From: a bacterium
GTDB taxonomy: Bacteria > Bacillota_I > Bacilli_A > RF39 > UBA660
Assembly: GCA_030524925.1 (NCBI GenBank)
Contig: JAUNFS010000003.1
Coordinates: 2,146-66,145 of the forward strand
Direction of reading: 5' to 3'
Length of the DNA stretch: 64,000 bases
Position 1 is the stretch's first letter, and each line of letters starts with the position of its first letter. Below are positions 15,024 through 29,899 of this stretch, one piece after another. A program made the position numbers and the translations under genes. The notes under the pieces were generated by a model. That model worked only from the letters and a program-made list of their open reading frames with translations. It made no database searches and was not told where the DNA came from.

Positions 15024-15100
15024 GGATCTTTAGCTCAGTTGGTTAGAGCATCCGGCTCATAACCGGGCGGTCGTAGGTTCGAGTCCTACAAGATCCACCA
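15024..15100 (+). tRNA. tRNA with CAT anticodon (Met, or Ile2 if lysidine-modified), CCA encoded
   Basis: GGATCTTTAGCTCAGTTGGTTAGAGCATCCGGCTCATAACCGGGCGGTCGTAGGTTCGAGTCCTACAAGATCCACCA. Cloverleaf pairs by eye (acceptor GGATCTT/AAGATCC, anticodon stem CCGG..CCGG, T-arm GTAGG/CCTAC). The body resembles Bacillus tRNA-Ile2(CAU). Confidence 0.9.
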
Positions 15101-15109
15101 TTTTTATTT

Positions 15110-15194
15110 GCGGGTGTGGCGGAACTGGCAGACGCGCTAGACTTAGGATCTAGTGGATTAATCCGTGCAGGTTCAAGTCCTGTCACCCGCACCA
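15110..15194 (+). tRNA. tRNA-Leu (TAG anticodon), long variable arm, CCA encoded
   Basis: GCGGGTGTGGCGGAACTGGCAGACGCGCTAGACTTAGGATCTAGTGGATTAATCCGTGCAGGTTCAAGTCCTGTCACCCGCACCA. 85 nt class II tRNA. Confidence 0.9.
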
Positions 15195-15303
15195 ATTTGT
15201 TTATATACGAACATTACTTATTATTTAGGTGGGTTCGCTACTTATAAATCATTAAAATAGTGTTCGTTAGAACATTATTTTTTTGTTTCTGGGAGGTTTT
15301 GTT

Positions 15304-15969
15304 ATGAAAAGAAGTAAAATTATTATTGAGTTAATTAAGAATGAAATAAGTGTCGTACAAGCAATGGATATTTTAAATTTGTTATTACAAGATATAACGG
15401 ATAAAAAAATAAAGAAATGGCTCTATTGTGAAATTAATGGCTATAATGTTAAAGATAAAGTACCAGAATATAGAATTGTTAAGACTAATTTAAAAGGAAA
15501 TTTTGTTGCTGGCAATTATAAGTGCACAAGCCAAGATATTCCTTTAAAGCCACAATACATTAAAGATTATGCTACTACTAAAATCACTGCTAGCATATAT
15601 GAAATATCACAATTTGCAATAGCCGAGAAAGAAAATAAAAGTCATTCTCTAATAATACCTTTACACGCAGTTATAGCACAAGAGATATCAATGATAAATG
15701 GCGAAGTTATTAGTGCATATAGAGAATTACCACTATATTCACATACGAATATATTAAACAAAATAAAATCAAAATTATTACAAATATTTATTGAGTTAGA
15801 AAAAAAATACGGCAATTTAGATGGTTATTATATTGAATTTGCTAATGATAAAAAAGGAAAAGAAGTGGTTAAAGATATTACAAACATAATATATACGGAT
15901 AATTCGGTACACATAGGCGATGATAACAAGATAGAAAAATCAAATGTAGGTGTTGCAAATGAAAATTAA
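15304..15969 (+). CDS. AbiTii-like abortive-infection protein
   Basis: From ATG 15304, preceded by GGGAGG. N-terminal ...VVQAMDILNLLL...KIKKWLYCEINGYNVKDKVPEYRIVK matches the (W..ELNGY..VPxYR) AbiTii pattern. Asn-rich repeat tail. Confidence 0.55.
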   Translation: MKRSKIIIELIKNEISVVQAMDILNLLLQDITDKKIKKWLYCEINGYNVKDKVPEYRIVKTNLKGNFVAGNYKCTSQDIPLKPQYIKDYATTKITASIYEISQFAIAEKENKSHSLIIPLHAVIAQEISMINGEVISAYRELPLYSHTNILNKIKSKLLQIFIELEKKYGNLDGYYIEFANDKKGKEVVKDITNIIYTDNSVHIGDDNKIEKSNVGVANEN

Positions 15970-16123
15970 AATTGGAAATGGAAATAAAATCAAAAATTCT
16001 AATGTAGGCAAAAATAACAAAATTGAAAGCGAACAAACACCAAATAAAATTTTAATAGATATTTTAGTTGGTCTATTCATAACAATAGTTGGTGGGATAA
16101 TTCTATATTTCATAACAAATTAA
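15959..16123 (+). CDS. 54-aa ORF: repeat continuation plus TM helix, probably the frameshifted C-terminus of the AbiTii-like gene
   Basis: Own translation: MKIKIGNGNKIKNSNVGKNNKIESEQTPNKILIDILVGLFITIVGGIILYFITN. Repeats the IGxxNKIxxSNVG unit of the upstream ORF in the next frame. Confidence 0.4.
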   Translation: MKIKIGNGNKIKNSNVGKNNKIESEQTPNKILIDILVGLFITIVGGIILYFITN

Positions 16124-16140
16124 AACGATTAGTTTGTTTT

Positions 16141-16383
16141 CTAATCGTTTTCTTTTTTTATTAAATCATCTAATGTAACACCTAAAGCAACAGATATTCT
16201 ATAAAAGGTATCAACAGAAAAGTTATAACCGGCTTTATCACTTTGAATTTGTCTTATAAAATCGTGAGATAAATCTACCATTTCAGCAAGTTGCATTGAT
16301 GTTATGTTTTTTTCTTTTCTATATTTTCTAATGTTCTTTCTAATGGTATCGTAGATGTTGGCATCAAAAATTAATTTTTCCAT
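16141..16383 (-). CDS. XRE-family helix-turn-helix transcriptional regulator
   Basis: KNITSMQLAEMVDLSHDFIRQIQS HTH. 80 aa. AGGAGG SD. Confidence 0.8.
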   Translation of the reverse strand: MEKLIFDANIYDTIRKNIRKYRKEKNITSMQLAEMVDLSHDFIRQIQSDKAGYNFSVDTFYRISVALGVTLDDLIKKEND

Positions 16384-16397
16384 AATGTTATCTACCT

Positions 16398-16440
16398 CCT
16401 AACATAATTTTAAAGAAATATATCCAAAAAATATGTTAGG
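16398..16440. promoter_or_regulatory. 9-bp inverted repeat (CCTAACATA / TATGTTAGG), candidate operator
   Basis: Left arm overlaps the SD of the XRE gene. Right arm abuts the -35 of the rightward promoter. Confidence 0.35.
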
Positions 16441-16442
16441 TA

Positions 16443-16471
16443 TTGACTAACAACGATGTATGTGATAAAAT
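16443..16471 (+). promoter_or_regulatory. candidate promoter for the 200-aa membrane protein gene
   Basis: TTGACT-N17-TAAAAT. Confidence 0.45.
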
Positions 16472-16506
16472 TAAGTTATCATTAATAATATGATTTTATA
16501 TATGTT

Positions 16507-17109
16507 GTGAGGTGTTTAAAGGTGAAAAAATTCGGTAATATACTAATTGATATTGTATTGGTACTAGCATTTATAATAACTTGTGCTGGTACATTTGCAG
16601 AAAAAAGTGTTGGTTTTGGTGTTGCCACGATAATTATTATTGTATTGTTTATTTTAAATCTTAAAAAAGGTAATCAAGTTGTAGATAGTAAAGAAGTAAA
16701 AGATTTAGATGCTAAATATACAAATAGCAGTTGGCAAAAAATTGGAAGTTATGAAAATGCTTATCTATATATCAACGAAAATGATAAGAAAGTATTAATT
16801 AACAATCACGAATACAATTTTAAAGATATAATTTCTGCCGAAATAATGGAAAATGAAAAAGAACAAACATATACTGCAACAACTCAAAATGCTATATTCA
16901 CAAGGTCTTATAGTAGTGGTTCAAGAACTTATCATTATTGCAGTAAATTACAAGTAAAAATCGTTCTAAATTCAATAACTAGTCCACAAGAATATATTAC
17001 TTTTATAAGTAAAAAGACAAATAAAAATAGTAATAAATATAAAAGTGCTTATGATATGGCACAAAAATTCATATCAACTTTGCAAGTTATTATTAAGAAT
17101 AACCAATAA
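16507..17109 (+). CDS. two-TM membrane protein with C-terminal globular domain (element cargo)
   Basis: Two TM helices, then a ~130-aa soluble domain. Alternative GTG start at 16522 after GAGGTG. No family recognised. Confidence 0.5.
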   Translation: MRCLKVKKFGNILIDIVLVLAFIITCAGTFAEKSVGFGVATIIIIVLFILNLKKGNQVVDSKEVKDLDAKYTNSSWQKIGSYENAYLYINENDKKVLINNHEYNFKDIISAEIMENEKEQTYTATTQNAIFTRSYSSGSRTYHYCSKLQVKIVLNSITSPQEYITFISKKTNKNSNKYKSAYDMAQKFISTLQVIIKNNQ

Positions 17110-17140
17110 ATTAAGTCGTAAAGGCTTAATTTTTTAATTC

Positions 17141-17350
17141 TTATATATAAATGAAAATATATTTATCACTATTGTATTTATTAAAAATATAATCTTGAAG
17201 ATTTGCAATATTATTAAACTTTTTCCCTTTTTCTTCATAATTACTTATTATATACAAATTATTATTTCTAATTATAATGAATACTCCGGGATGCTTTTTA
17301 TCTAAAACTTTACTTTCTATTTTTGATATTCTTCTTTCTAGTGTATTCAT
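17141..17350 (-). CDS. hypothetical small protein (element)
   Basis: 69 aa. ATGA overlap with the upstream HTH gene. Confidence 0.4.
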   Translation of the reverse strand: MNTLERRISKIESKVLDKKHPGVFIIIRNNNLYIISNYEEKGKKFNNIANLQDYIFNKYNSDKYIFIYI

Positions 17351-17730
17351 TTTATATCAAGCCTTTCTTCTATATTATCAATTCTTTTTAATAATTCTAA
17401 TTGTTGATACTGCAAAATTCTATCTAATATAAAAGTAGATGCCTTTAATTGATTATTTTCATTTTCTGCATTATCAAGTATTGATAACAAATTATTTAGA
17501 GCCTTATCGCCTAAAGTATGCAATTTTATTTCTATACTTTGCAAGGCTTGTATTCTTAAATCAATTAATAGTTGTTTGAATACTGGGTCAGTTCGCCATC
17601 TATAAATTGTGTTTTCATCAACTCCAATTTTAGAGGCAACTACTTTGTTATTATCGCCAATTAAAAGTAAAGATAAAGCAGTTTGCTGTTTATCATTTAA
17701 TTTTTTAAAATTCTCTACAAAATTAGTCAT
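17347..17730 (-). CDS. small HTH protein (terminase-small-subunit-like / phBC6A51-type)
   Basis: LLLIGDNNKVVASKIGVDENTIYRWRTDPVFKQLL, an HTH followed by a coiled-coil tail. Confidence 0.5.
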   Translation of the reverse strand: MTNFVENFKKLNDKQQTALSLLLIGDNNKVVASKIGVDENTIYRWRTDPVFKQLLIDLRIQALQSIEIKLHTLGDKALNNLLSILDNAENENNQLKASTFILDRILQYQQLELLKRIDNIEERLDIK

Positions 17731-17784
17731 TTTCTATCATATCCTTTCATTAGTGTATTATTTGTAGAAAATGTAGTTATTGTA

Positions 17785-19521
17785 TTACTTTGTAATAATT
17801 ACATTATCTACACTTTCTACATTTACTACATTCTTTTTAATAGGTATTTTGTAAAAGACTTTTTGTCTTTCACTTTTTCCAGTTAGTTCGTTTTTAACTG
17901 GGTTTGGTGTTGTATAATAACCGATGCCATCATATTTCTTCAATAATGGTTTTATGGGGTCTAACATTGAATTTTTAACTTTATTATCTGCGAGGTTAGA
18001 ATATAATTTTTGCAGTTCTATTCCTAACTCTTTTAAACTACCAGCCCATTTTCCATTATTCTTGTTTACTAAAGTTTTTATAGTATCAACTAAAGGGTTA
18101 TTATTATATTCTTCTAATTCATTTCGCATCACTTTTTCTTCATAAGATGAAATCATCTGCCATTTACAACTTTCTTTATTGAAGTTTAAAATATATTGAT
18201 TTTGGTCTACATCTCTACCAGTAATAGATAAAATAGTTTCTTTATCGTATCTATTTTGTTTATCTAAAACTATTGTTGTATCAGCAGTACCAGTTATACC
18301 ATTTGTTCCGGATACTTTTCCAAAAACATCATTGTCATTGCCTTTTTTAAGATGATGTATTAAAATAATTGCCAAGCCATTTTCATCAGCAAAATCTTTA
18401 ATAGTTCCAACTTCTTTATAATCATTTGCATAATTGTTTTTTCCATTATAATCACTTCTAATTTTTTGAAGTGTATCTATTACTATAACCTTAATATAAG
18501 GTTCTTTTTTTATAATGCTTTTAATCTCATTAATTAAGCCATTTTCTATATCATCACACCTAGTTGCATAAATAAAATTATCTGGTGCTATTTTGCCATC
18601 TAATACCTTATTTAATCTGCTTTTAAGCCTATGTTCGCTATCTTCTAGTGCTAGATATAAGCATCCAGTTTTAAGTGTCTTAAAGCCTAAGAATGGCATA
18701 CCTTTACTAATACTTAAACATAAATCTAAAGCCATCCAACTTTTTCCTATTTTAGGTAAACTGCAAATTAAAGTAAGTCCTTGAGGTATTAAACTATCTA
18801 CATAAAATGTTATTGGTGGTAAATCTTTATCTTGTAATGATTTGGCAGTTGCATATTGAATATTATTTATCTTATCTTTATTTTTAATTTTATTAGTTTC
18901 TTTTTTTAGAGCACTTTTAACAATATTATTTAATTCTGCTTTTTTTAGTTTATCTTCAAAAACAATATTATTAATTATATTTGCTACATCTTTAATATTC
19001 ATTTCCGGATATGTTTCTTTTATTAATAATAGATGCTTATATAAATGGTTGTTTCTAGCATCACCATCAAGCATTCCAGTTAAATTATTTTTTGCTTTAT
19101 ATAATGGATAAAATTGCAATGGTAGTTCTGGTAAATTATCAATATTTAATTCTCTATTCATTTCTCTAGTTTTGCCATTTAATTTAATGACTGCATAGGC
19201 ATTTTTCCCGGTTAAATAATCACATTGAAAGCCTAAAACAGATATTACATCTGTGTTTCTTTTAAAACTATATCCAGTAGGCATTTTATAGTAGTAATGC
19301 TTTCCTTTAGTTGTTTTAACTCTTAAGGTGGGATAGTTTGCATCTATATAATCACATATTATATTTTCATTTATATTGTCATTGTCAAAATCTAAAACAA
19401 TTACATCATCACCAATAATAAGACCAGCATTTTCTAAATTATCAAAAGTAGTTTGATAGTATTGTTGGTTCATTGATTTAATATTAGGTGATTTATCATT
19501 TTTTAGTGGTATAAATTGCAT
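17785..19521 (-). CDS. replication protein: N-terminal Prim-Pol domain fused to RepA/AAA_25-type P-loop ATPase
   Basis: VLDFDND (DxD) and TTKGKHYYYK in the N-domain. Walker A SLPKIGKS. CLYLALEDS. Walker B VIVIDTLQKI. Confidence 0.75.
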   Translation of the reverse strand: MQFIPLKNDKSPNIKSMNQQYYQTTFDNLENAGLIIGDDVIVLDFDNDNINENIICDYIDANYPTLRVKTTKGKHYYYKMPTGYSFKRNTDVISVLGFQCDYLTGKNAYAVIKLNGKTREMNRELNIDNLPELPLQFYPLYKAKNNLTGMLDGDARNNHLYKHLLLIKETYPEMNIKDVANIINNIVFEDKLKKAELNNIVKSALKKETNKIKNKDKINNIQYATAKSLQDKDLPPITFYVDSLIPQGLTLICSLPKIGKSWMALDLCLSISKGMPFLGFKTLKTGCLYLALEDSEHRLKSRLNKVLDGKIAPDNFIYATRCDDIENGLINEIKSIIKKEPYIKVIVIDTLQKIRSDYNGKNNYANDYKEVGTIKDFADENGLAIILIHHLKKGNDNDVFGKVSGTNGITGTADTTIVLDKQNRYDKETILSITGRDVDQNQYILNFNKESCKWQMISSYEEKVMRNELEEYNNNPLVDTIKTLVNKNNGKWAGSLKELGIELQKLYSNLADNKVKNSMLDPIKPLLKKYDGIGYYTTPNPVKNELTGKSERQKVFYKIPIKKNVVNVESVDNVIITK

Positions 19522-19687
19522 CTTTTTTTATCCTTTCTTCATTATTGATTTTTTTCTTCTTTTCATCCTTGCTGGAAAGCCATTTTTTATATTCTTCTTT
19601 GTGATTATCAATATAGGTTGTTACATCATCAACTAAAATGCCAGAGGCAAATTCTTTTATTAGTTCATCACTAATCATAATTTTCAC
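19496..19687 (-). CDS. hypothetical small protein (element)
   Basis: 63 aa, overlaps neighbours on both sides in an operon-like way. Confidence 0.35.
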   Translation of the reverse strand: MKIMISDELIKEFASGILVDDVTTYIDNHKEEYKKWLSSKDEKKKKINNEERIKKDAIYTTKK

Positions 19688-19868
19688 CTGCTTTAATTAA
19701 CTCTTTGGCTTTCTTTTCCCAGAAAGTGGCATTGTGTTTTTTTACTTTATCTGGGTTATTCTTTCGCCAGTTTTTAAAATATAATTTTCTGGCATCATCA
19801 ATTTGCTTAGTTGAATATTTGTTAATAGCATTACTAAATTGTTTTTCATCATTTTTATTATTATTCAT
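19671..19868 (-). CDS. hypothetical small basic protein (element)
   Basis: ATG at 19868 follows AAAGGAGG; the track start 19886 lies upstream of the SD. Confidence 0.4.
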   Translation of the reverse strand: MNNNKNDEKQFSNAINKYSTKQIDDARKLYFKNWRKNNPDKVKKHNATFWEKKAKELIKAGENYD

Positions 19869-19905
19869 ACAAGAGCCTCCTTTCAAATTTTTTTCTTTTA
19901 TTTTC

Positions 19906-19934
19906 TTGCATTTTTTTGAAAAATGATATATTAT
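19906..19934 (+). promoter_or_regulatory. candidate rightward promoter of the element switch region
   Basis: TTGCAT-N17-TATTAT. Confidence 0.4.
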
Positions 19935-19938
19935 ATAA

Positions 19939-19968
19939 ATGTAAAAGTTATTTCCTTTTCTTTTACAT
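19939..19968. promoter_or_regulatory. 9-bp inverted repeat ATGTAAAAG-N12-CTTTTACAT, candidate operator
   Basis: Perfect arms, located between the two face-to-face candidate promoters. Confidence 0.35.
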
Positions 19969-19988
19969 AAGTGAAGTTTAACACAGAA

Positions 19989-20016
19989 ATTATAGAAAAG
20001 GGATAAAAATATACAA
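19989..20016 (-). promoter_or_regulatory. candidate leftward promoter for the replication operon
   Basis: Minus strand TTGTAT-N16-TATAAT. Confidence 0.4.
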
Positions 20017-20070
20017 AAAAAAATATTTGTTAATTTTGATAAATAAATTTCACAAAAAGGAAGGATAATT

Positions 20071-20658
20071 ATGGAAAGAAAAGAGAGAGAAAAAAATCAT
20101 ATTGACCCAGAAGTTATTAAAGAAAATGTTAATAATACAAAATATACAAATGACATTAAGCAAATGTTATTGTGCTTTTCATTAGAACTTAATAGGTTGC
20201 TATATAAAAAAGAAATAAGTCAAGAAGATTTTTCTAAAATAACAAAAATAGGTCAAACAAGTATTTCTAAATATAGAAATGGTACTGCACTACCAAAACA
20301 AGAAAATATTGATATTATTGCAAAGGCTCTTGGAGTATCAAGTGAATATTTAGTTGGTAAAAGCAAAACAAAAGACTATTCATATAATCAATTAAATAAA
20401 TTATTTGGCTTTAATGATGAAACAATTAATAATCTTTCAAGTTGTTTTAACAAAGACTATCTAAATAATATGTTTGGTGGTGAATTAGATAGTATTAATT
20501 ACTTTCTTGAAAGACTAAAAAATTATGTTGATGCCAAAAATGAATATAAAAAAGAAAAAAAGGAATTAAACAAGGCTTGGGATAAAAATAAAATTGATGA
20601 GGCTAAATATTATTTAACAAATTCACTAATTGATTTAATAGATGAAAATTTAAAATAG
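20071..20658 (+). CDS. XRE-family HTH regulator (repressor-like) with C-terminal extension
   Basis: ISQEDFSKITKIGQTSISKYRNGTALPKQENIDIIAKALGVSSEYLVG. AGGAAGGA SD. Confidence 0.75.
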   Translation: MERKEREKNHIDPEVIKENVNNTKYTNDIKQMLLCFSLELNRLLYKKEISQEDFSKITKIGQTSISKYRNGTALPKQENIDIIAKALGVSSEYLVGKSKTKDYSYNQLNKLFGFNDETINNLSSCFNKDYLNNMFGGELDSINYFLERLKNYVDAKNEYKKEKKELNKAWDKNKIDEAKYYLTNSLIDLIDENLK

Positions 20659-20673
20659 AAAGGAGTTTATATT

Positions 20674-22218
20674 ATGAATATTGCACTTTATTTAAGATAT
20701 AGTTCACAAAATCAAACAGAGGCATCTATTGAGGGACAAAGAGAGGTTTGCCAAGAATATGCCAGAGTAAAAAAATATAATATTATATGCGAATATATTG
20801 ACAGAGCCCACTCGGCTACAACAGATAATCGCCCAGAATTCAAAAGAATGATTAAAGATAGTTCTAAAGGTTTATTTGATGCAGTAGTAGTTTATCAATT
20901 TGATAGATTTGCAAGAAATAGATTAGATAGTCAAAAATATAAACAACTTTTAAAGAAAAATAATGTAATGGTTTTATCTGCTCGTGAGGAAATACCAGAA
21001 GATGCTTCTGGTATACTTATGGAAAGTGTTTTAGAGGGGATGGCAGAATATTATAGTGTTGAGTTAGGACAAAAGGTTTCTCGTGGAATGAAAACAAATG
21101 CCAGTAAATGCTATTATAATGGTGGTTCAGTTCCTTTAGGTTTAAAACTAGAGGTTGTAGAAAAAATACAAACATCTGGTAAAATAAAAGAAAAAAAGAA
21201 ATTTGTTATTGATGAAGAAAAAGCCTCTATTATAAAAACTATATTTGAAAAATTTAACAAAGGCGAAAGTATGATTAAAATTATAAATTATCTAAATAAA
21301 TTAGGCATTAAAACAAGCAAAAATAAGCCATTTAATAAAAATAGTATGAGAAGAATATTAGAAAATAAAAAGTATATTGGTATCTATTCTTATGATGGTG
21401 TAGATACTCCAGATGCTATTCCAAGAATAATTAGTGATGATTTATTTTATAAAGTACAAGATAAACTTGGCAAATATAGATGTGCTCCCGGTAGACAAAA
21501 AGCCAGAACGGAATATCTTTTAACAACTAAATTATTCTGTGGTTATTGTGAAAATATGATGGTTGGTGTTGCCGGTACTTCTAAAAATGGTACATTGCAT
21601 AATTACTATACTTGTAAGGGCAGAAAAACTTGTGGATGCAAAAAAGCCAATATCAAGAAAATATACATTGAGGATATAGTTGTAGATATGGCAAGAGAGG
21701 TCTTGACAGATAAAGAAATACCTATTATTGCTAAAAATGTGGTTGAATATGCAGAAAGCCACGATAACAGCGATTTAAAATATTTGCAAGATAAATTAAA
21801 AAATTTAAACAAACAAAATGAAAGTTTAACTAATAGTTTGAAATATTGTGAAGTTGATGCTGTAAGAAAAACAATTATTGATGAAATGACAAAAATTGAA
21901 AATGAAAAAATAAATACTCTTGAGGCAATTAAAGAAGAAGAAAAAAATCATACTTATATTGAATATGACAAAGTAGTATATTTTCTAGAACAAATGAGAA
22001 AAGGCGATATAAACGATATGAGGTATAGACAAAGACTTATAAATTGCTTTATTAATAAGGTGTTCTTATGGGATGATAAAATTATTACTACTTTTAATAT
22101 TAAAAAAAGTGATATTTCTACTAAATTGCCTAATTTAAAAGACTTGGAGTGTTCGTTTGAAGTTTCAAATGGTGCACCATTGATAAATTTGTTCGGACTA
22201 TTCGGACTTTATATATAG
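20674..22218 (+). CDS. large serine recombinase (resolvase/invertase N-domain, recombinase domain, zinc ribbon, coiled coil)
   Basis: IALYLRYSSQNQ...IEGQ catalytic Ser region. VVVYQFDRFARN. CGYC...YYTCKGRKTCGC zinc ribbon. 514 aa. Confidence 0.9.
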   Translation: MNIALYLRYSSQNQTEASIEGQREVCQEYARVKKYNIICEYIDRAHSATTDNRPEFKRMIKDSSKGLFDAVVVYQFDRFARNRLDSQKYKQLLKKNNVMVLSAREEIPEDASGILMESVLEGMAEYYSVELGQKVSRGMKTNASKCYYNGGSVPLGLKLEVVEKIQTSGKIKEKKKFVIDEEKASIIKTIFEKFNKGESMIKIINYLNKLGIKTSKNKPFNKNSMRRILENKKYIGIYSYDGVDTPDAIPRIISDDLFYKVQDKLGKYRCAPGRQKARTEYLLTTKLFCGYCENMMVGVAGTSKNGTLHNYYTCKGRKTCGCKKANIKKIYIEDIVVDMAREVLTDKEIPIIAKNVVEYAESHDNSDLKYLQDKLKNLNKQNESLTNSLKYCEVDAVRKTIIDEMTKIENEKINTLEAIKEEEKNHTYIEYDKVVYFLEQMRKGDINDMRYRQRLINCFINKVFLWDDKIITTFNIKKSDISTKLPNLKDLECSFEVSNGAPLINLFGLFGLYI

Positions 22219-22245
22219 AATCAATCGCATGATTGATTTTTTTTT
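22219..22245 (+). terminator. rho-independent terminator after the recombinase gene
   Basis: AATCAATC-GCAT-GATTGATT followed by T7. Confidence 0.6.
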
Positions 22246-22266
22246 ATAAAACGAAAAAATCATGAA

Positions 22267-22479
22267 ATGGTTGAATTATATTATAATATAAGACAGACAA
22301 TAAATGAGCTTATTGATGAGTATAATTTAGAAAAATCACAAAACGAAATAATTAAATCTTTTTCTAATAAACTTACAAAACAATTTGGGCAAGGTTTTAG
22401 TGTTCCAAGTTTAAAGAAGATGAAAAAATTTTATCAAGTATTTAACGGTGGTTCCACACTGTGGAACCACTTGAAATAA
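22267..22479 (+). pseudogene. internal fragment of a DUF1016 (YhcG-like PDDEXK nuclease) gene
   Basis: ELYYNIRQTI...IIKSFSNKLTKQFGQGFSVPSLKKMKKFYQVF resembles the LYWEIG...LSKDL..EFG.GFS..NL..MR.FY N-domain. The nuclease domain is missing. Confidence 0.4.
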
Positions 22480-22722
22480 AAATCACAAATTCGGGAAAAT
22501 ATGAATAATTAAGTAGCATTAAATTATTGCTACTTTTTCTATTCTTTGGTAAAAAATGTATAGTGATTGATTTTTTTGTTTATGATAATTTATAATAACA
22601 AGTGCAACACCAGCTGATGTAATTGAAATTTAACTTAGAAATAAAGTGATTTTTTCTTTTTTATTTGTACTTTGATTTACTCAGCATTTAATATATGTTA
22701 TATTATAATCAAGGGAGGTCAA

Positions 22723-22998
22723 ATGGATAATCGTTTAATTGAAAAACTAAAGTGCTTAGATGAATCAATGGCAAGAACACATTTAAAAATTACCAGAGAT
22801 AATTTAAATGAACTACAAGCAGATCAAGCTTTAAATTTATTACATAGCCAGTATAAAGATTGTCTAACAATATTGTCACTTTTAGGTGAAGAATTTGTTT
22901 ATCGTTTTAGATACGCTATATTAAGTGATATAGAAGCACTATTAGTTAAGACTAACTACTTTAAAAAAACAACTGGACAAGCTGGGATTATGAAATGA
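22723..22998 (+). CDS. hypothetical 91-aa protein
   Basis: ATG 22723 follows AAGGGAGG; the track start 22672 is upstream of the SD. Followed by a terminator. Confidence 0.4.
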   Translation: MDNRLIEKLKCLDESMARTHLKITRDNLNELQADQALNLLHSQYKDCLTILSLLGEEFVYRFRYAILSDIEALLVKTNYFKKTTGQAGIMK

Positions 22999-23061: not shown

Positions 23062-23394
23062 TTAATTACAGTTCCAAGGTTCTAAGACACAATCTTGGCA
23101 TTTTTGGAAATTACTTGCTGGCATTTCACGATAACCATTAATTGTACTAAATAACCACATAACGATTGTTGGTACAAAGAAAATTAATACACCGGCAATA
23201 GCACGATACATTAAACTCTTACTAGCCTTCTTAATGTCATCTTCTTTACCACCTACTACGGCTTTTCCTAAATCAAACATTCCATATCCAATAATTAATA
23301 ATGGAATAGCTATTTTAAATACTGTTAGTATCCAACCTACAAATCCTAAAACGTCTGCTGCTTGATCACAAAAACCAGTTATATTCATACTCAC
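23062..23394 (-). CDS. 110-aa two-TM protein, VirB2/TrbC-pilin-like topology, Cys-rich tail
   Basis: TM1 VLGFVGWILTVFKIAIPLLIIGYGMF. Basic loop DLGKAVVGGKEDDIKKASKSLMYR. TM2 AIAGVLIFFVPTIVMWLF. Tail FQKCQDCVLEPWNCN. Confidence 0.5.
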   Translation of the reverse strand: MSMNITGFCDQAADVLGFVGWILTVFKIAIPLLIIGYGMFDLGKAVVGGKEDDIKKASKSLMYRAIAGVLIFFVPTIVMWLFSTINGYREMPASNFQKCQDCVLEPWNCN

Positions 23395-23446
23395 ATCTCC
23401 CTTACATACTTAAATTCTATATGAATTTATGGTAATTGTCAACAAA

Positions 23447-24562
23447 TTATTTAAATATACCAAAAATTCTACTGCCTTCTTGTCTACTAAAACCTAGTTT
23501 TACAAGAAGTCTATCTACTGCTAACAATCTATCTGCCCTGTCGTTAATGACTGGCATGTTATAGAAGACTTTAAATTTTGTTTCATATTCAAAATTTGTT
23601 AGTTCTTCATCTTTGATAGCGCTTTGATTTAATATTATTTTTCCATCTTTGACTTTTTCACGTAAATTGTTATCTTTTTTTAAAGCTTTATTTAAACTAA
23701 TGATACCTGGATTAACTAAGTATAGTATATCCGTACATAGTTGTTTTTCTGGTAAATCATTTAAATCTATTAATACAATATCAATATTTCTAAGTGCATT
23801 TATTTTGAATCTTAATTCTTCTACTGATGTACAAAAAGAAATATCTTGATCATTAAAGTAGATAGAATCTTGTTTAAACATTTCAAAAGCAATTACTTTA
23901 TAATTGGCTTTCAATTGTTTTAACATCATGTGCATTAGAGTTGTTGCACCAGCATGGTCTGTGACATTTTGAAGACCAATGATTCTAGCTCTAACTTTAA
24001 TTTGTTCTTCTTCTCTAACATAGTCTACATTACTAAATACGTTAGGATTAGTAAATGCAGGTCTATATTCATCATTATTAAGATTTACATTACTATTTGG
24101 ATTAGCAATGTATGATTGATTACCAAAAGAATTTGGTGAAGCACTTACAGTTTGATTCATCATATTTTGATTTTGATAAGATGATTCACTTAAATACTTT
24201 TTAACATTATCTAATGTATTTGGATGATTTAATAAATAATTTATTCCAGCAGCATTTCTAGTAAAGTTATAATAACCGTTTTCAACTAAATATCTTAGAT
24301 AATTATTACTACTGACAAGTTCACTATCATTAAGAAGTATAATTACTTTTGATGCTGGAAAGAAACTTAAAAAGTTTAAAACCTCTTTAATATCAAAATA
24401 ATTCTTAATTGCTGTTATATCAATTATTGCTTTACTATATATAAAGTTAGATAACTGACTTTCTAGCATATCTCTAGTAAACTCACCACTTAAAGTTTTA
24501 ATGGTATCTAAATTAGCACTATCAATGATAATTCCATTAAGATTTTTTATTGCAATATACAT
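23447..24562 (-). CDS. TadZ/CpaE-like protein: receiver-like N-domain, Asn/Gln-rich linker, MinD/ParA-like domain with degenerate P-loop
   Basis: N-domain IIDITAIKN...KVIILLND...LVENGYYNF. Linker SYQNQNMMNQTVSASPNSFGNQSYIANPNSNVNLNN. IIGLQNVTDHAGATT replaces xKGGxGKT. VLIDLN is Walker-B-like. Confidence 0.5.
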   Translation of the reverse strand: MYIAIKNLNGIIIDSANLDTIKTLSGEFTRDMLESQLSNFIYSKAIIDITAIKNYFDIKEVLNFLSFFPASKVIILLNDSELVSSNNYLRYLVENGYYNFTRNAAGINYLLNHPNTLDNVKKYLSESSYQNQNMMNQTVSASPNSFGNQSYIANPNSNVNLNNDEYRPAFTNPNVFSNVDYVREEEQIKVRARIIGLQNVTDHAGATTLMHMMLKQLKANYKVIAFEMFKQDSIYFNDQDISFCTSVEELRFKINALRNIDIVLIDLNDLPEKQLCTDILYLVNPGIISLNKALKKDNNLREKVKDGKIILNQSAIKDEELTNFEYETKFKVFYNMPVINDRADRLLAVDRLLVKLGFSRQEGSRIFGIFK

Positions 24563-24570
24563 TTAATCAC

Positions 24571-25047
24571 CTAATTCCATCCTGGTACTTCATCTTTGGC
24601 AAAGTATATAGGTTTAGTTTCACCTGATATAGGAAATGTAAATATTTCACCTAATATTGGTAGATCTACTCTAAAAAAGACGGTTACTTTGTAATAACTT
24701 TTTTTGATATTACCACTATCGTCAACGGTTTTAGCAACGCAATATCTATATTTGGTTGCATCTGCGGCATAGGGATCAAACCCGCTTACAAGAGTGCCGT
24801 CACCTTGTTCAGTTAGATTTTTAGGACATTTGCTATATACTAAATAACCAACTGTTGATAAATAATCTTTAATTTCTTGTTGACTATCATCACTAAGTCC
24901 CTCTTTTTTTTCAATGATATTTACGATACCATTTTTAACCTTAAATGCCTTAGAGTAATTAATTGAAAGCGCTAAAAAGCTTGAAAATAAAACTATAAAA
25001 ACTAAAACAATTGTTAAAAGCCAAGTTCCACCAATTGCTTCTCTCAT
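24571..25047 (-). CDS. TadE-like pseudopilin candidate (158 aa)
   Basis: MREAIGG, hydrophobic TWLLTIVLVFIVLFSSFLAL, then SINYSKAFKVKNGIVN, which resembles the post-TM block of TadE-family proteins. Confidence 0.5.
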   Translation of the reverse strand: MREAIGGTWLLTIVLVFIVLFSSFLALSINYSKAFKVKNGIVNIIEKKEGLSDDSQQEIKDYLSTVGYLVYSKCPKNLTEQGDGTLVSGFDPYAADATKYRYCVAKTVDDSGNIKKSYYKVTVFFRVDLPILGEIFTFPISGETKPIYFAKDEVPGWN

Positions 25048-25062
25048 TTATATTATTGCTTT

Positions 25063-25311
25063 CTAATTAGTGTCCTTATTTGGGCATTGAACAGATTGTG
25101 GATTAGTGCAATTGTCATCTTGACAATAAAGGCAACTACACATTTTTGCTCCTGACGTACAATTACAACTAAAGGCTTGTGTACACTTTGTACTCCTTGT
25201 GATATTTGACTTAATTGATGGCCATATTAATGTAGTAAATACTACTCCTATTGCGGCGATTGCTACTACTGCTACTGCAGTCATACTTAATTCGCCTGAT
25301 GCTTCTTTCAT
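25063..25311 (-). CDS. 82-aa Flp/pilin-like protein with Cys-rich C-terminal module
   Basis: MKEASGE, then LSMTAVAVVAIAAIGVVFTTLIW, then 8 Cys in the last 40 residues. Strong SD TAGGAGGA. Own promoter. Confidence 0.55.
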   Translation of the reverse strand: MKEASGELSMTAVAVVAIAAIGVVFTTLIWPSIKSNITRSTKCTQAFSCNCTSGAKMCSCLYCQDDNCTNPQSVQCPNKDTN

Positions 25312-25336
25312 TTTTTATTCCTCCTATCTTAAAATA

Positions 25337-25365
25337 ATTATAATATAGTTTAACTTCTAAATCAA
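25337..25365 (-). promoter_or_regulatory. consensus-like sigma-A promoter for the 82-aa pilin candidate
   Basis: Minus strand TTGATT-N17-TATAAT, about 25 nt upstream of the SD. Confidence 0.55.
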
Positions 25366-25372
25366 TATTTAT

Positions 25373-25404
25373 GTAAAAAAAAGATAACAATTTCTTGTTA
25401 TCTT
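25373..25404 (-). terminator. rho-independent terminator/attenuator after the 153-aa gene
   Basis: Perfect 10-bp stem AAGATAACAA/TTGTTATCTT with a 4-nt loop, followed on the minus strand by T8. The stop codon lies in the stem. Confidence 0.6.
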
Positions 25405-25859
25405 GAACTAATACCTGTACGATCTGGGAAGTATGTACTTGGCTTATTCTTACTATTATGGGCATCTTCTAAAATGCCATCAATTTTGTTTACTACAGCA
25501 TAATTTTCTTGGGTACTCTCAACGTTGAATGAGCCAGTCACGGTTGCTACTTTAACACTTACTTTTGGTGGTGCTTCATATATATCATAGAAAGATATTT
25601 TGTAGTTTTTATTAATATTTATGGTTTCTGAAAATCTTCTAATAAAGTTTTCTACAAATTTTTCTTTAATAATTCTTATTTCCCCGTACTTACGATAATG
25701 AGCTAAATCTAATGAATCTCCTAGAGCTGCATCTGTTATTTCTTTAATTAAATATACGTCTTGTTCGTTAGTGGTTGAATAGTTTTGTAAGATTAGCATT
25801 ATTCCTAGAATACCTAGTCCAAAAACTATAATCCAATATCCCCATACACTTTCTTTCAT
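25398..25859 (-). CDS. pseudopilin-like protein (153 aa)
   Basis: MKESVWG, hydrophobic YWIIVFGLGILGIMLIL, then a soluble domain. AGGAGGTG SD. Confidence 0.5.
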   Translation of the reverse strand: MKESVWGYWIIVFGLGILGIMLILQNYSTTNEQDVYLIKEITDAALGDSLDLAHYRKYGEIRIIKEKFVENFIRRFSETININKNYKISFYDIYEAPPKVSVKVATVTGSFNVESTQENYAVVNKIDGILEDAHNSKNKPSTYFPDRTGISSR

Positions 25860-25874
25860 TTACTTTTGCACCTC

Positions 25875-28800
25875 CTATGGATAGATAATACTATCATCGT
25901 CAATATTTACGTCTGGATAGCCGTCTGGCAATAACTGTCTCATTGTACCTACTTTAAATTGATTATCGCTAGCAAAATAGTATTTGTACTTTTGTCTACC
26001 AGATGTATTACTTGCATATCTTGTAACAAAGCTACTTATACATTCTTTGCCATCACTGTTACAGCTAAATAAGCCGCCTGAATAGCCACTGCTCCAGTCA
26101 TAGTAGTTACTATTCTTATTATATTTCTTGATTTCTTGCATTGTTTTAGTATCTAAATTAAATACATATTCAAGAGTTTCGGAATCTGGTGTATCGTCAA
26201 ACATTCCGTCTTTTAAACCAATTTGCTTGATTCGGCTTTCAGCTGCCTCGCCTTTGGCATTTGACCAGTTATCACCTAAATCTCCACTATCTTTACGATT
26301 ATTTGGATCCATGTTGCTAGGATTTATAGTTCTATAAATGTATTCTGGATAGAAATCTTCGCTTTCTCTTCCATCGCAATCAGGTCCTTGACAGCACTCC
26401 GCTCCAAAACAACAAGTAGGACAATCACGGTCGTATAGCACCTCTCTATTACAATATACACATAAACTTTCAAATACGTTTCCTTCTGCTAATTTTTGAT
26501 TTATACGATATTGTACATTAGATTCATTTTTACTTTTACCCTTAGGCTCTATTTCTAAGTGGCCATTATTTTCAATTGTAAACCAAGTTCTATATTTACC
26601 TTGATAATTTGTTATTTGTACATTAAATACATAACCTATTTCTAAAACATCAGGATAACTATAACTTTGCTGGTCAGTAATATATAAACCGCTTGGTACT
26701 AAGCTATAGTAGCCAACTGTTGGTTTATAGTATAGGTCAGCTTTACCAGTTTTTTCACTGTCAGCTTCTCCTCTATCTGTTTCCTCAACATTTTCATAAG
26801 CTGTGTTATAACCTTTTGAATAATCATTTGCTCCTAATTTTCCATAAAGAGGGCCTTCATGCTTACCGCTTGTATCTTTGTAATTTACATTTGTACTATT
26901 TGTTGTTGCTCCAGATGTATTTGGAAGTGTACTTACATGTGTCCAATATTTGCCATCTGATTCTACAGATTTAACAAACTCTACTTCTTGCTCTACAACT
27001 TTAGTATTACCACTTACTGAATCGTAGTATTGTTGCGTATATGTAAATGATAGATCAGGATCTAAAATATATTTCCATGAATTTTTAAAATTACTATTAG
27101 CTTTTTGACAAGAAGTCTTTTTTTCTTCTAGGCCTTGACGTTTTTCGTATGCTTTAACATATGCGTTATGAGCACCTACAACATTTGTTGATGGTTTTGG
27201 TGACACGGCGCAAATTTGTGATGTTGTCCATGAAACAGTTTCTTTTCCTCTTACTCCACTATTGTAAACACCATAATAATAATCATCTTGGGTTCTACCT
27301 GTATATGTAATATATTTTTCTTGTGACCAGCCTAAGCAATGATTATCTTCAGGGTCACGACCACCAGAACAATACCAACAACTGGAATTCATTGGGTGAC
27401 TTGCAGAATCATCTATTGCATCTTGCAGATTAGCTTCTTTTTGCCATGCATCAAATTTTGCCTTTTCATCTCTTACAGCAGCAAGATAATCTCTTTGCCA
27501 TACGTCGTAAGCTGTATAGAAGAAGGCAGTGATTTCACCTTTAACTTCTGGCTGAGAATATTGTCCATCGGAGTCTTTAGTAAATACGAAGAATCTACCA
27601 CTTGTAGATGCAGTTGTCATTGGGTAAATCATGTGATTATTCTCTGTTGTATAAAGTTTGCAATATTCGTTTGTTTCAATATTATTATTGTTATTGAATG
27701 TTTTATCACGCCAGTATTGCATTGCATTTTTTGTATAGTTTTGAAAGCTATCTAAAGTTGCTTGATTATTCATAACTTTATCTTCATATTTTTTTAATTT
27801 GCTCAATAATCCATCACGATTTACTTGTTCTACAGATGAATCTGATGGCATTTGGTTTACTGTTGAGCCATCTGACGCACATTCGCCTTGACAATCCATT
27901 ATTAAATTAACATGGTCTTGATCTTTGCATTGTTCATTATAAATTTCTTCTTGAGATTTTGAAAGATTGAAATTTTCAAGTCCTTCACAACATCCTGCGT
28001 TAATGTATTCTTCTATAGTTGCGTTTTTATTCCCTAATTTTAATTGGCCATTTTCATATTTACATACATTTGGTAGAGTGATGTCTAAGTCAAATGTTAG
28101 TTTGTGATGCATGCTGTCTAAGTAGCCAACCATTCTTTGGTTTGATTCATTTGGGCTTTCTACTAATAAGCCTACGCCTGATGCTCCAAATGGGAAGAAA
28201 TATTTATAGTCAATTTCAACTGTTATTTTAGGATTTGAAGCTATTTCTTCATAACTTCCGTATACTTCTAGTTCAAATGTATCATCGCCATTTAACAAGT
28301 CTGTTCCTTCAGAAATGTTTGCTTTGCACTCACCTTTTGAACAGCTTACTTTTTCAAAGGTTATTTCTGGGTTTAGATATGCAAGGCCATAACTTGAGAT
28401 TGCATTTTTAATATCCTCAATACCTTCAACTTTTACTTTTACTTTTTTATGGTAGCCGTATGATGAACCAGGAACATCTTCTGGAGTTCCGTCTACGACA
28501 AATTCTATATTATAATCTTTGGTTTCTGCTGTATAAATTCCTCCGTAGCCACTTAAAAATGTTCTACAGAAAGCACTTGAGCCACCTGCTAGTTTACCAG
28601 CACAGTAGATTGCTTGAGATGCTTGGTAGTTTTGGTCAGTCTTAAGTGTTGGAAATTTAGGATATTTAGGTTCTAAACCTTCAAAAGCGTTAGCTCCATT
28701 AATATATTTTTCAATGCTTTCCCATTCAGCTCCACCACTTTTGCCATAACCTAGGCCGGCATTAAAAAATCTTACTGCGGTATTGATATCAATATAATCT

Positions 28801-29156
28801 ACAGAATTTTTTTCTGCCAAATAGATTTGATGCATCTTTATAAGTCCAGCATCATAACCACCATTATCAACTGATAACTCTTTACCATAATATAATGTTT
28901 TAGGAGTGTTTCTGTTTGGGTCAATACAATATAAGTCAACTTCAGTGCCTTCAATTGTTGTTTTGTGATGCCAGCTAGTTGTTGTATATCCATCAGTAAA
29001 TACATAACCAGTAGTTTCTGTTGGGTTATCTGTAAGAGGAGTTTCTAATAAACAGTAGCCATTAGCTGCTGAAGGTCTGCCATCACATATACCATTTGAG
29101 GCATCAACATTTATAGTTACAAATAAAAGAGATATTAATAATAGATACTTCTTCAT
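25875..29156 (-). CDS. 1093-aa secreted Cys-rich protein, N-terminal thioester-domain-like region, no cell-wall sorting signal
   Basis: Signal peptide MKKYLLLISLLFVTINVDAS. LYCIDPNRNTP...NSVDYIDINTAVRFF parallels the adhesin motif at 12089-12223. About 29 Cys, including CPTCCFGAECCQGPDC. C-terminus lacks LPxTG and a TM. Confidence 0.6.
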   Translation of the reverse strand: MKKYLLLISLLFVTINVDASNGICDGRPSAANGYCLLETPLTDNPTETTGYVFTDGYTTTSWHHKTTIEGTEVDLYCIDPNRNTPKTLYYGKELSVDNGGYDAGLIKMHQIYLAEKNSVDYIDINTAVRFFNAGLGYGKSGGAEWESIEKYINGANAFEGLEPKYPKFPTLKTDQNYQASQAIYCAGKLAGGSSAFCRTFLSGYGGIYTAETKDYNIEFVVDGTPEDVPGSSYGYHKKVKVKVEGIEDIKNAISSYGLAYLNPEITFEKVSCSKGECKANISEGTDLLNGDDTFELEVYGSYEEIASNPKITVEIDYKYFFPFGASGVGLLVESPNESNQRMVGYLDSMHHKLTFDLDITLPNVCKYENGQLKLGNKNATIEEYINAGCCEGLENFNLSKSQEEIYNEQCKDQDHVNLIMDCQGECASDGSTVNQMPSDSSVEQVNRDGLLSKLKKYEDKVMNNQATLDSFQNYTKNAMQYWRDKTFNNNNNIETNEYCKLYTTENNHMIYPMTTASTSGRFFVFTKDSDGQYSQPEVKGEITAFFYTAYDVWQRDYLAAVRDEKAKFDAWQKEANLQDAIDDSASHPMNSSCWYCSGGRDPEDNHCLGWSQEKYITYTGRTQDDYYYGVYNSGVRGKETVSWTTSQICAVSPKPSTNVVGAHNAYVKAYEKRQGLEEKKTSCQKANSNFKNSWKYILDPDLSFTYTQQYYDSVSGNTKVVEQEVEFVKSVESDGKYWTHVSTLPNTSGATTNSTNVNYKDTSGKHEGPLYGKLGANDYSKGYNTAYENVEETDRGEADSEKTGKADLYYKPTVGYYSLVPSGLYITDQQSYSYPDVLEIGYVFNVQITNYQGKYRTWFTIENNGHLEIEPKGKSKNESNVQYRINQKLAEGNVFESLCVYCNREVLYDRDCPTCCFGAECCQGPDCDGRESEDFYPEYIYRTINPSNMDPNNRKDSGDLGDNWSNAKGEAAESRIKQIGLKDGMFDDTPDSETLEYVFNLDTKTMQEIKKYNKNSNYYDWSSGYSGGLFSCNSDGKECISSFVTRYASNTSGRQKYKYYFASDNQFKVGTMRQLLPDGYPDVNIDDDSIIYP

Positions 29157-29854
29157 TATAATACACGCTTCTTTCTATAAATTATCACACCTACTACACC
29201 ACCAGCTATTAAAACTGTTCCCCCAATTATGTATAGATAATTTTCTTTTAAGAACTTTAAAAACTTATTTTCTTTAGTTGGATCAGCATCGCCGTCTTTG
29301 CCATTTTCTATCTCTGTTATTTTATTTACTATTTGAGTAATATCCATGTCTACTTCTTTAGTAACAAAAGTTTGACAGTATGGTAAGTCTTCATGCCCTT
29401 TACATACTAAATATTCTGAATAAGGATTATATTTTGGTTTAGTAAATGAAAAACTTCTTAATCTTTTTCTACCGCAATTTTCAGTGCTTGAATATACAAT
29501 AATGTCATAAGATATGATATTATCTTGATCTTCTGATGTTATTGTATATTTACCATTTTCAGTATCACTGTAATATATTGATTTTTTTTCTTTGGTTTTA
29601 GAGTCAGTTACTTCTAATGATAAATTTTCAGTTATATTATAAAAAGATATAATAAAGTTATAACTTATTTGCTCGTACTCGCCACCGCCTTCACTAGTAA
29701 CTTTATTTTTGATTTCTTTTAATTCATAATTTGCTTGTACTAGTGCTGCTTCTTTATTTAGATTTGCTTGTTCTTTGTATGAACATTCAGCGGCATAAAC
29801 GTTAACATAAAAAAACAATAAAGGTATTAATATTTTAAAATATTTCACATCCAT
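29156..29854 (-). CDS. signal-peptide protein with C-terminal TM anchor (about 230 aa)
   Basis: KYFKILIPLLFFYVNVYA-AEC signal. C-terminal YIIGGTVLIAGGVVGVIIYRKKRVL. Start is ambiguous (ATG 29854 or GTG 29848 after AGGTGA). Stop overlaps the next start (ATGA). Confidence 0.55.
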   Translation of the reverse strand: MDVKYFKILIPLLFFYVNVYAAECSYKEQANLNKEAALVQANYELKEIKNKVTSEGGGEYEQISYNFIISFYNITENLSLEVTDSKTKEKKSIYYSDTENGKYTITSEDQDNIISYDIIVYSSTENCGRKRLRSFSFTKPKYNPYSEYLVCKGHEDLPYCQTFVTKEVDMDITQIVNKITEIENGKDGDADPTKENKFLKFLKENYLYIIGGTVLIAGGVVGVIIYRKKRVL

Positions 29855-29870
29855 CACCTATCCTATGACA

Positions 29871-29899
29871 AGTATAGCATAACTAAGTGTCATTTTCAA
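29871..29899 (-). promoter_or_regulatory. candidate promoter of the seven-gene operon
   Basis: Minus strand TTGAAA-N17-TATACT. Confidence 0.5.

Follow-up and report, generated by a model that had tools for sequence, protein, structure and literature searches.

The 64,000-nucleotide stretch of DNA analysed here, referred to as the window, belongs to a metagenome-assembled genome (MAG) which is 85% complete and comprises 0.9 Mb with a G+C content of about 26%. The host lineage is one of uncultured small-genome gut Bacilli. Behind a pair of genes for tRNA-Met and tRNA-Leu(UAG), the window harbors an integrated element of 6,985 bp (positions 15195-22179) which is bounded on both sides by a 6-bp core, GCACCA. 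The element is a block of ten open reading frames (ORFs), all of them intact (Table 1). On the tRNA side an AbiTii-domain protein and a small transmembrane protein are encoded, and further inwards lie a small XRE-family helix-turn-helix (HTH) protein, a membrane protein, a protein resembling the small terminase subunit TerS, a primase-polymerase replicase and several short ORFs. A second XRE-family protein and a large serine recombinase (LSR) occupy the distal end.

Both ends of the element were fixed by comparison with the genome G017, the closest relative within the genus, in which an intact empty site was found and whose flanks are 87-99% identical to those of the window. The G017 contig C32 starts with the tRNA-Met/tRNA-Leu pair, 99% identical, and continues immediately with the right flank of the window. 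When positions 15028-15194 are joined to 22180-22800, the resulting sequence is collinear with G017 across the junction, and the limits of the element follow from this collinearity. The empty site reads ...CACCCGCACCA|TTGACAAGTTTGTTCGAACTATTCGAAC..., and the corresponding positions 22168-22207 of the window read ...AATGGTGCACCA|TTGATAAATTTGTTCGGACTATTCGGAC.... The tRNA-Leu(UAG) gene stays fully intact after integration. The original prediction, which was made from this DNA before any comparison, had let the element begin directly after the 3′-end of tRNA-Leu, in agreement with the G017 junction at 15194/15195. Its right end at 22260 has to be withdrawn in favor of 22179, since the sequence downstream of this position is host DNA in G017. 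It had also called for a search among relatives for an empty site and exact ends, and had named two findings that would speak against it. Neither was made: the gene block is not a constant feature of this locus in all relatives, and the recombinase is not part of a larger element. A search of the genus covered 23 further species genomes, and the element was found in none of them.

The LSR was identified by its Resolvase (PF00239, 1.4e-27, residues 4-144), Recombinase (PF07508, 2.9e-22) and Zn_ribbon_recom (PF13408, 8.3e-9) domains as well as by its match to the integrase family phrog_95 (1.5e-107). Its length of 514 aa falls into the range of about 450-700 aa that is typical of this class. The catalytic motif R8-Y-S10 is visible in the translation, and the catalytic domain is closest in sequence to TP901-1 Int, TnpX and a recombinase of a conjugative transposon. 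The domains and the tRNA-Leu junction bear out the earlier statement that a 514-aa serine integrase, instead of a tyrosine integrase, lies beside the tRNA gene. A feature absent from that account is the position of the att site inside the recombinase ORF. The core at attR lies 13 codons ahead of the stop codon, and the codons behind it, including the stop (22180-22218), are derived from the host, as is the terminator that follows them; terminator-like sites were detected in this host B′ arm. In a comparison of att sites, which is comparative and not biochemical, only the 6-bp core was common to both ends and no long direct repeats were seen. By this comparison the crossover lies within GCACCA and has joined an attP located in the 3′-end of the recombinase gene to the 3′-tip of tRNA-Leu(UAG).

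By means of LSR homologues and the sequence pattern of the P′ arm of attP, six more full copies were found, mostly at the tips of tRNA-Leu(UAG) or tRNA-Leu(CAA) genes. Together with the window, the set of full copies (n=7) comprises L036, L078, L045, L047, L037 and L040/L041. Three of them are located at tRNA-Leu(tag), namely L036 (LSR 94% identical, in another host context), L078 (LSR 96% identical, right flank like that of the window) and L045 (TerS-like protein 87% identical). L047 (TerS-like protein 72% identical) lies at a tRNA 3′-end ending in GCACCA, and L037 (LSR 76% identical) and L040/L041 (LSR 71% identical) lie at tRNA-Leu(caa). The 7.1-kb contigs L045 and L047 had been considered as circles and were rejected as such, being integrated copies with short flanks only. 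Six of the seven copies, the window included, measure between 6,904 and 7,042 bp, and L040 reaches 9,043 bp (9.0 kb) with a larger cargo. The right flanks are mostly unrelated, and the tRNA side is the only conserved part of attB. L040 has GTACCA in place of GCACCA at either junction, and its target tRNA shows the same variant. Core and target thus vary together, which puts the crossover at or beside the variant base. A profile of the TerS-like protein located the element in one of 24 genomes of the genus; in a sample of 301 genomes of the order, 6 contained it.

A further relative, L038 (LSR 73% identical), has no tRNA on its contig. Its LSR ORF reads through GCACCA into the P′ arm and ends in ...GAPYSLYTNIVYYLGGFAVYKRLK followed by a stop codon. 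The gene order is circularly permuted, with the N-terminus of the replicase at the start of the contig and the C-terminus at its end, as expected of an excised circle or of a concatemer. A scan of metagenome contigs of the Joint Genome Institute (JGI) found no attP junctions, and megablast of the element against plasmid and phage collections gave no match. Small virome records named ‘Bacteriophage sp.’ were set aside, as they show only distant similarity to the replicase or the TerS-like protein and carry no integrase. The empty site, the six further copies and the attP form in L038 uphold the earlier view of an integrated mobile element, and we consider it almost certain that the element is real, precisely delimited and recently mobile.

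In the predicted circular form the recombinase would comprise 523 aa, since the joined P and P′ arms of the window translate into a 21-residue tail, ICLYTNITYYLGGFATYKSLK, before a stop codon. The P′ reading frame is kept in all seven full copies, and the stop is at the same codon in six of them and one codon earlier in L040; the seven predicted tails are near-identical. Beyond the first 27 nt, the variable columns of the P′ arm fall on codon positions 1, 2 and 3 in numbers of 4, 3 and 8. Because the conserved stretch of about 66 nt exceeds the half-site of a serine integrase, we hold with moderate confidence that the P′ arm is coding. At about 15258-15284 it is followed by a small hairpin and a T-run. 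The tails of integrated copies consist of 1-30 unrelated residues, and LSR homologues from a large protein collection (69-94% identical) are all kept up to the residues NGAP and diverge directly after them. Judged from these alignments, integration would swap the conserved 21-residue tail for 12 host-encoded residues in the window. Integrase homologues from other genera (40-56% identical) do not lie at tRNA-Leu and were uninformative for this att site. An integrated recombinase with a host-derived tail may, for instance, carry out only excision that depends on a directionality factor, or may be altered in stability. It is conceivable, and we put it forward as a speculation, that the tail of the circular form (LYTNIxYYLGGFAxYK) is needed for integration or tunes it and that host-tailed integrated enzymes behave otherwise, in which case tRNA-tip serine integrases of this kind would make up a class that is widespread but has so far not been described.

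The P′ arm also occurs on its own. Solo P′ arms of about 70-80 bp, which still encode the tail, stand directly after tRNA-Leu(tag) on five genome contigs (L061, L064, L065, L066, L067) and six metagenome contigs (L068, L069, L071, L073, L077, L080), with no element proteins in the adjoining sequence; in L067 housekeeping genes follow. No close LSR homologue is present in the five genomes searched as a whole (L061, L063, L064-L066). These arms look like scars of lost elements, which points to decay at the site of integration as a further fate of the family; perhaps the arms are kept because they supply a terminator to the tRNA operon. The occurrence of P′ arms without any element in several genomes had prompted the reading that the arm is native host sequence 3′ of tRNA-Leu. 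This was rejected, as the arm is missing from the empty site of G017 and, in L038, is fused to the 3′-end of the recombinase gene with no tRNA present. In L070 and L076 the P′ arm follows tRNA-Glu(ttc) with the core CACCA, which suggests a change of target tRNA within one sub-lineage.

Outside the element, the host B′ arm resembles a decayed P′ arm. It is followed by an indel of about 335 bp (22250-22563) which lies between two copies of the right half of the tRNA terminator (TGATTGATTTTTTT) and is absent from G017. The insertion encodes a 70-aa DUF1016_N fragment. Its location is the one expected for the cargo of an older element, and it may be the remains of such an occupant. Further to the right, positions 23062-29899 are host DNA conserved in the genus.

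Table 1. Features of the element and its attachment sites. Positions refer to the window.
Feature	Position	Strand	Basis or remark
tRNA-Met	15024-15100	+	ARAGORN
tRNA-Leu(UAG), left (B) arm of the att site	15110-15194	+	ARAGORN; identical in the empty-site relative G017
GCACCA core at attL, last six bases of tRNA-Leu, CCA included	15189-15194	+	Sequence; G017 junction
P′ arm of attP, predicted to encode the recombinase tail ICLYTNITYYLGGFATYKSLK and stop in the circular form	15195-15260	+	Kept beside the tRNA in 7/7 full copies
AbiTii-domain protein	15304-15969	+	PF18864 4.8e-24; PADLOC AbiTii 5.1e-23
Small transmembrane ORF, ~54 aa	15959-16123	+	ATG overlaps the AbiTii stop (ATGAAAATTAA)
XRE-family HTH protein, 80 aa (XRE80)	16141-16383	-	HTH_19/HTH_3
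200-aa membrane protein, divergent from XRE80	16507-17109	+	phrog_888 7e-10; homologues in L038, L059
69-aa ORF, last of the leftward operon	17141-17350	-	Conserved in L036, L037, L078, L059
127-aa TerS-like protein, phBC6A51 type	17347-17730	-	PHROG, Pfam, predicted fold
Iteron block TGTAG(A/T)	17754-17832		Inverted repeats I1/I9; conserved motif array
578-aa primase-polymerase and AAA_25 (RepA/DnaB-like) replicase	17785-19521	-	Pfam, PHROG, motifs
Small ORFs of 63 and 71 aa opening the leftward operon	19496-19886	-	Conserved in all relatives
Divergent control region	19887-20070		Alignment of six elements
195-aa XRE repressor-like protein (XRE195)	20071-20658	+	HTH_3 8e-11; RstR-family 6e-11; PHROGs 8, 4, 3 repressors
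LSR, element-encoded residues 1-502 ending ...NGAP	20674-22179	+	Domain and PHROG matches
GCACCA core at attR, recombinase codons Ala-Pro	22174-22179	+	Sequence
Host B′ arm: last 13 recombinase codons (LINLFGLFGLYI and stop) and terminator	22180-22250	+	Collinear with G017 directly after tRNA-Leu

The control genes are grouped around two divergent intergenic regions, each with one XRE-family protein. XRE195 is encoded 15 nt upstream of the integrase gene and in the same orientation, in a position which corresponds to that of Stl in the Staphylococcus aureus pathogenicity islands (SaPIs). Upstream of it, a rightward promoter (TTGCAT at 19906-19911 and TATTAT at 19929-19934, spaced by 17 nt) is followed by a 9-bp inverted repeat, ATGTAAAAG (19939-19947) and CTTTTACAT (19960-19968), and the columns of promoter and repeat are mostly invariant among six aligned elements. 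This repeat is likely the operator of XRE195. No other protein of the family is as strongly conserved as XRE80, which shows 90-94% identity where the replicase shows 59-90%; in L037, for example, XRE80 is 90%, the integrase 76% and the replicase 59% identical to the proteins of the window. This suggests that XRE80 is under a strongly constrained interaction. For the adjacent 200-aa membrane protein, a role in exclusion or abortive infection is a guess. None of the ORFs of the element matches a family of recombination directionality factors (RDFs). By position only, the 63-, 69- and 71-aa ORFs are candidates for such a factor, and the 63- and 71-aa ORFs, the latter with a match to phrog_14214 (5.6e-8), are likewise candidates for a Cro-like regulator.

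The replicase matches AAA_25 (2e-22) and the primase/polymerase families PHROG 906, 695 and 239. Its Pfam Prim-Pol match is weak (E 0.009), PHROG 695 spans residues 5-216, and the motifs D44xD46, G73-K-H75 and D101 of archaeo-eukaryotic primases are readable in the translation. About four direct and three to four inverted copies of TGTAG(A/T), spaced by about 10-11 bp or one helical turn, span the stop codon of the replicase gene and the short spacer ahead of the gene for the TerS-like protein. The array recurs at this position in L036, L037, L038 and L040, although their replicases share only 54-90% identity with that of the window. Origins of SaPIs have the same position just downstream of the replicase gene. 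The iterons are a candidate replication origin, with a packaging (pac) site as the alternative, and we think it quite likely that the element replicates itself after excision.

The 127-aa protein was matched to PHROG 2538 (4e-14) and PHROG 7344 (1e-11), both annotated as ‘terminase small subunit’. An AlphaFold2 model computed from 18 family members (predicted local distance difference test score 84.5) consists of an HTH followed by two long helices forming a helical hairpin. In the PDB its fold is best matched by 2ao9, the phBC6A51 protein, with an E-value of 1e-3 and a TM-score of about 0.5 over 112 of 127 residues; this entry has chains A to I and has been described as a nonameric ring. The named matches in BFVD are small terminases. 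From profiles and modelled fold, we regard the protein as TerS with moderate confidence.

The slot beside attL is variable. The window and four relatives carry the AbiTii gene and the small membrane ORF, L038 carries RnlA/RnlB, and L040 an 841-aa AAA_13 ATPase. AbiTii scores 86.1 bits with PF18864 against a cut-off of 27.6, and its likely start is the ATG at 15304 rather than the TTG at 15283 given by the ORF-listing program, as the relatives begin with MKRSK. A frameshift in the AbiTii gene was considered and rejected: the overlap of the two ORFs is conserved in five relatives, which therefore points to a two-gene module. The same small protein is found in L036, L037, L045 and L047, and it shares the motif IGxxNKIxxSN(V/I)G with AbiTii.

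Other islands in the same bacterial order show part of this gene content. L055-L058 (in G286, G218, G294 and G103) are small islands of about 6-10 kb at tRNA-Trp or tRNA-His. Their TerS-like protein is 33-36% identical and never stands beside a large terminase; L055 and L056 encode a distant LSR (27% identity) at the far end, where L058 has a 562-aa ORF. L059 (G249:C63) is a related element with an integrase 50%, a TerS-like protein 46% and a membrane protein 43% identical to those of the window. Instead of the Prim-Pol/AAA_25 protein it encodes another replicase, of 692 aa, and the replication module has therefore been subject to modular exchange. No tRNA lies within the L059 sequence examined.

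Taken as a whole, the gene set resembles that of a PICI (phage-inducible chromosomal island). The PICI model of SatelliteFinder defines five core components, in which tyrosine and serine integrases are exchangeable: an integrase, a regulator (alpA/merR/stl), a primase-replicase, a small terminase and a capsid-morphogenesis gene, the last being often absent from PICIs of Gram-positive bacteria (PMC10085698). Compared by description, four of the five have a counterpart here, namely an integrase, a repressor-like XRE protein as the putative regulator, a primase-replicase and a probable terS. As a capsid-morphogenesis gene and the forbidden genes are both missing, the element resembles the Type B PICIs of that description. 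Like PICIs of Gram-positive bacteria (SaPI-type, PMC10085698), it has, in this order, an integrase, an HTH repressor-like protein, a divergent promoter, small ORFs, a primase-replicase, a candidate origin just behind the replicase gene and a terS-like gene. It also shares with them accessory or defence genes at one end, site-specific integration and the lack of structural and lysis genes. It differs in its large serine rather than tyrosine integrase, in its size of 7.0 kb as against a PICI median of 9.5 kb (PMC10085698) and in its host, an uncultured small-genome gut Bacilli lineage. Furthermore, and as far as the genes alone tell, no capsid-morphogenesis or packaging-interference gene was recognised in it. 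Searches with Pfam and PHROG found no capsid, tail, portal, TerL (large terminase), lysis or holin genes among its ORFs. The original prediction of a minimal phage-inducible island thereby holds at the level of layout. So do its components: two XRE regulators at divergent regions, a Prim-Pol and RepA-type replicase, a TerS/phBC6A51-like HTH protein (at the level of profile and fold), defence cargo, and the absence of capsid, tail and lysis genes.

We read the element as a PICI-like, integrative and self-replicating element and most probably as a minimal phage satellite whose hosts are uncultured gut Bacilli with small genomes, with a probability of roughly 0.55. Dependence on a helper, which we infer, stands at even odds or slightly above. 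In such a satellite, XRE195 would bind the inverted repeat at the divergent promoter in the integrated state and thereby keep the leftward operon off. Derepression would presumably be brought about by a protein of the helper phage, and the recombinase would excise the element with an RDF that is either encoded by one of the small ORFs or provided by the helper, as for the PICI-like elements (PLEs). Replication would then be started by the Prim-Pol/AAA_25 replicase at the TGTAGA iterons behind its own gene, and the TerS-like protein would redirect the large terminase of the helper to package the element. The slot on the attL side would carry interchangeable defence cargo, such as AbiTii with its small membrane protein, RnlAB or the AAA_13 ATPase.

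Several results weigh against this reading. Pfam models of TerL, HK97-type capsid and portal had no match in the 85%-complete MAG, and no helper phage was found there. No element ORF matches a family of capsid-morphogenesis genes, and, except in the form of multimers, DNA of 7 kb is rather short for a headful mechanism. Viral contigs of IMG/VR contained neither an integrase relative nor a TerS-like relative nor a P′ arm, and a phage collection gave only distant matches. A search of the MAG itself for contigs with attP or attB found none, and the attP junction of L038 could stem from a tandem integrated dimer. For the 127-aa protein, PF13022 reaches 26.1 bits and stays below its cut-off of 27.9; a sequence-profile search of the PDB led to generic HTH regulators and did not reach 2ao9. 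Its assignment draws solely on PHROG profiles and predicted-fold similarity, and an HTH with a coiled coil could also be a regulator. The lack of a helper in the MAG, the absence of the family from IMG/VR and the only moderate evidence for TerS would suit an integrative plasmid-like element that excises and replicates as a small circle without any phage helper. Such an element would spread by vesicles, transformation or mobilisation and use the 127-aa HTH protein as a regulator or partition-type DNA binder. In favor of it are also the element's own replicase and iterons, the unintegrated form assembled in L038, and the enrichment in vesicles of tycheposons that have similar modules (bioRxiv 10.1101/2020.12.28.424599). 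We nevertheless hold it to be rather unlikely: neither a relaxase nor an oriT-type protein nor partition genes are encoded, the 127-aa protein is matched best, by profile as well as by fold, by small terminases of phages, and the order of genes (repressor and integrase facing small ORFs, primase-replicase, origin, terS) is that of PICIs.

An immobile locus, be it a fixed defence island or the remnant of a decayed prophage, would accord with the solo P′-arm scars at tRNA-Leu in genomes lacking the recombinase, which show that decay occurs, and with the DUF1016 fragment just outside the element. It is very improbable in view of the intact state of all ten ORFs, the 94-96% identical integrases in different host contexts, the empty site in the nearest relative, the tightly kept size of 6.9-7.05 kb and the lack of remnants of virion genes. 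Five ORFs without assigned function (200, 69, 63 and 71 aa and the small transmembrane ORF) leave room on paper for structural proteins of a complete miniature temperate virus. These ORFs amount to about 450 residues in total and have no matches to capsid families, and a TerS-type protein without a TerL partner implies borrowed packaging machinery; we give this idea even less credence than the immobile locus. The phage satellite remains the reading we prefer.

With regard to its recombinase, the element can be compared with several known systems. Among characterised satellites, LSRs have been described for PLEs and for module 3 of marine virion encapsidated integrative mobilizable elements (VEIMEs) (PMC9618062, PMC9638900). 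The element has the LSR in common with both, and the helper-encoded RDF on which PLEs depend offers a suitable model for it, given that the element has no identified RDF. PLEs are different in being about 18 kb long, residing in Vibrio cholerae repeats and not in tRNA genes, and belonging to Proteobacteria. The ssrA islands of Dehalococcoides resemble it in that their LSR ORF and att site overlap at a tRNA-like gene. There, the DsiB ORF always overlaps att at the 3′-end of the tmRNA gene and varies in its C-terminus, and McMurdie et al. remarked that the DsiB gene is maybe fully functional only on the circle (PMC3146451). These islands target the T-loop of ssrA with a 20-bp repeat and carry metabolic cargo, and a layout of replicase and TerS is not reported for them (PMC3146451). 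Moreover, they pair a small DsiA with a large DsiB, whereas the element described here has a single recombinase and tRNA-Leu as its target. Of 937 tycheposons, 27 have an LSR (bioRxiv 10.1101/2020.12.28.424599). Tycheposons share with the element the targeting of tRNA genes and replication modules, and some are PICI-like with terS; they differ in their marine cyanobacterial hosts, their overwhelmingly tyrosine-type recombinases and their partial-tRNA repeats of about 40 nt.

In its domain architecture, catalytic motif and short shared att core, the recombinase is like the phage integrases of the TP901-1/A118/TnpX group. Integrases of this type generally have protein-coding or intergenic targets and an attP outside of the ORF. 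Here, by contrast, the CCA tip of a tRNA is the target and attP lies inside the integrase's own coding sequence. For serine integrases at the CCA tip of a tRNA with an ORF spanning attP, the remark on DsiB was the only one found in the literature, and they represent a barely documented recombinase design.

Almost nothing is known of phage satellites, or of the defence genes they carry, in uncultured small-genome gut Bacilli. The family described here provides exact ends, att sites and a candidate origin and operator, all of which are testable in heterologous hosts, and its cargo slot is a ready place to seek new defence genes. For the development of recombinases as tools, the pairing of a conserved half-site in the tRNA arm with a very tolerant second half-site is of relevance. 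If the proposed switch of the recombinase tail were true, the directionality or dosage of tRNA-tip serine integrases would be coupled to the state of integration, and this coupling would be carried by minimal satellites of uncultured small-genome bacteria.

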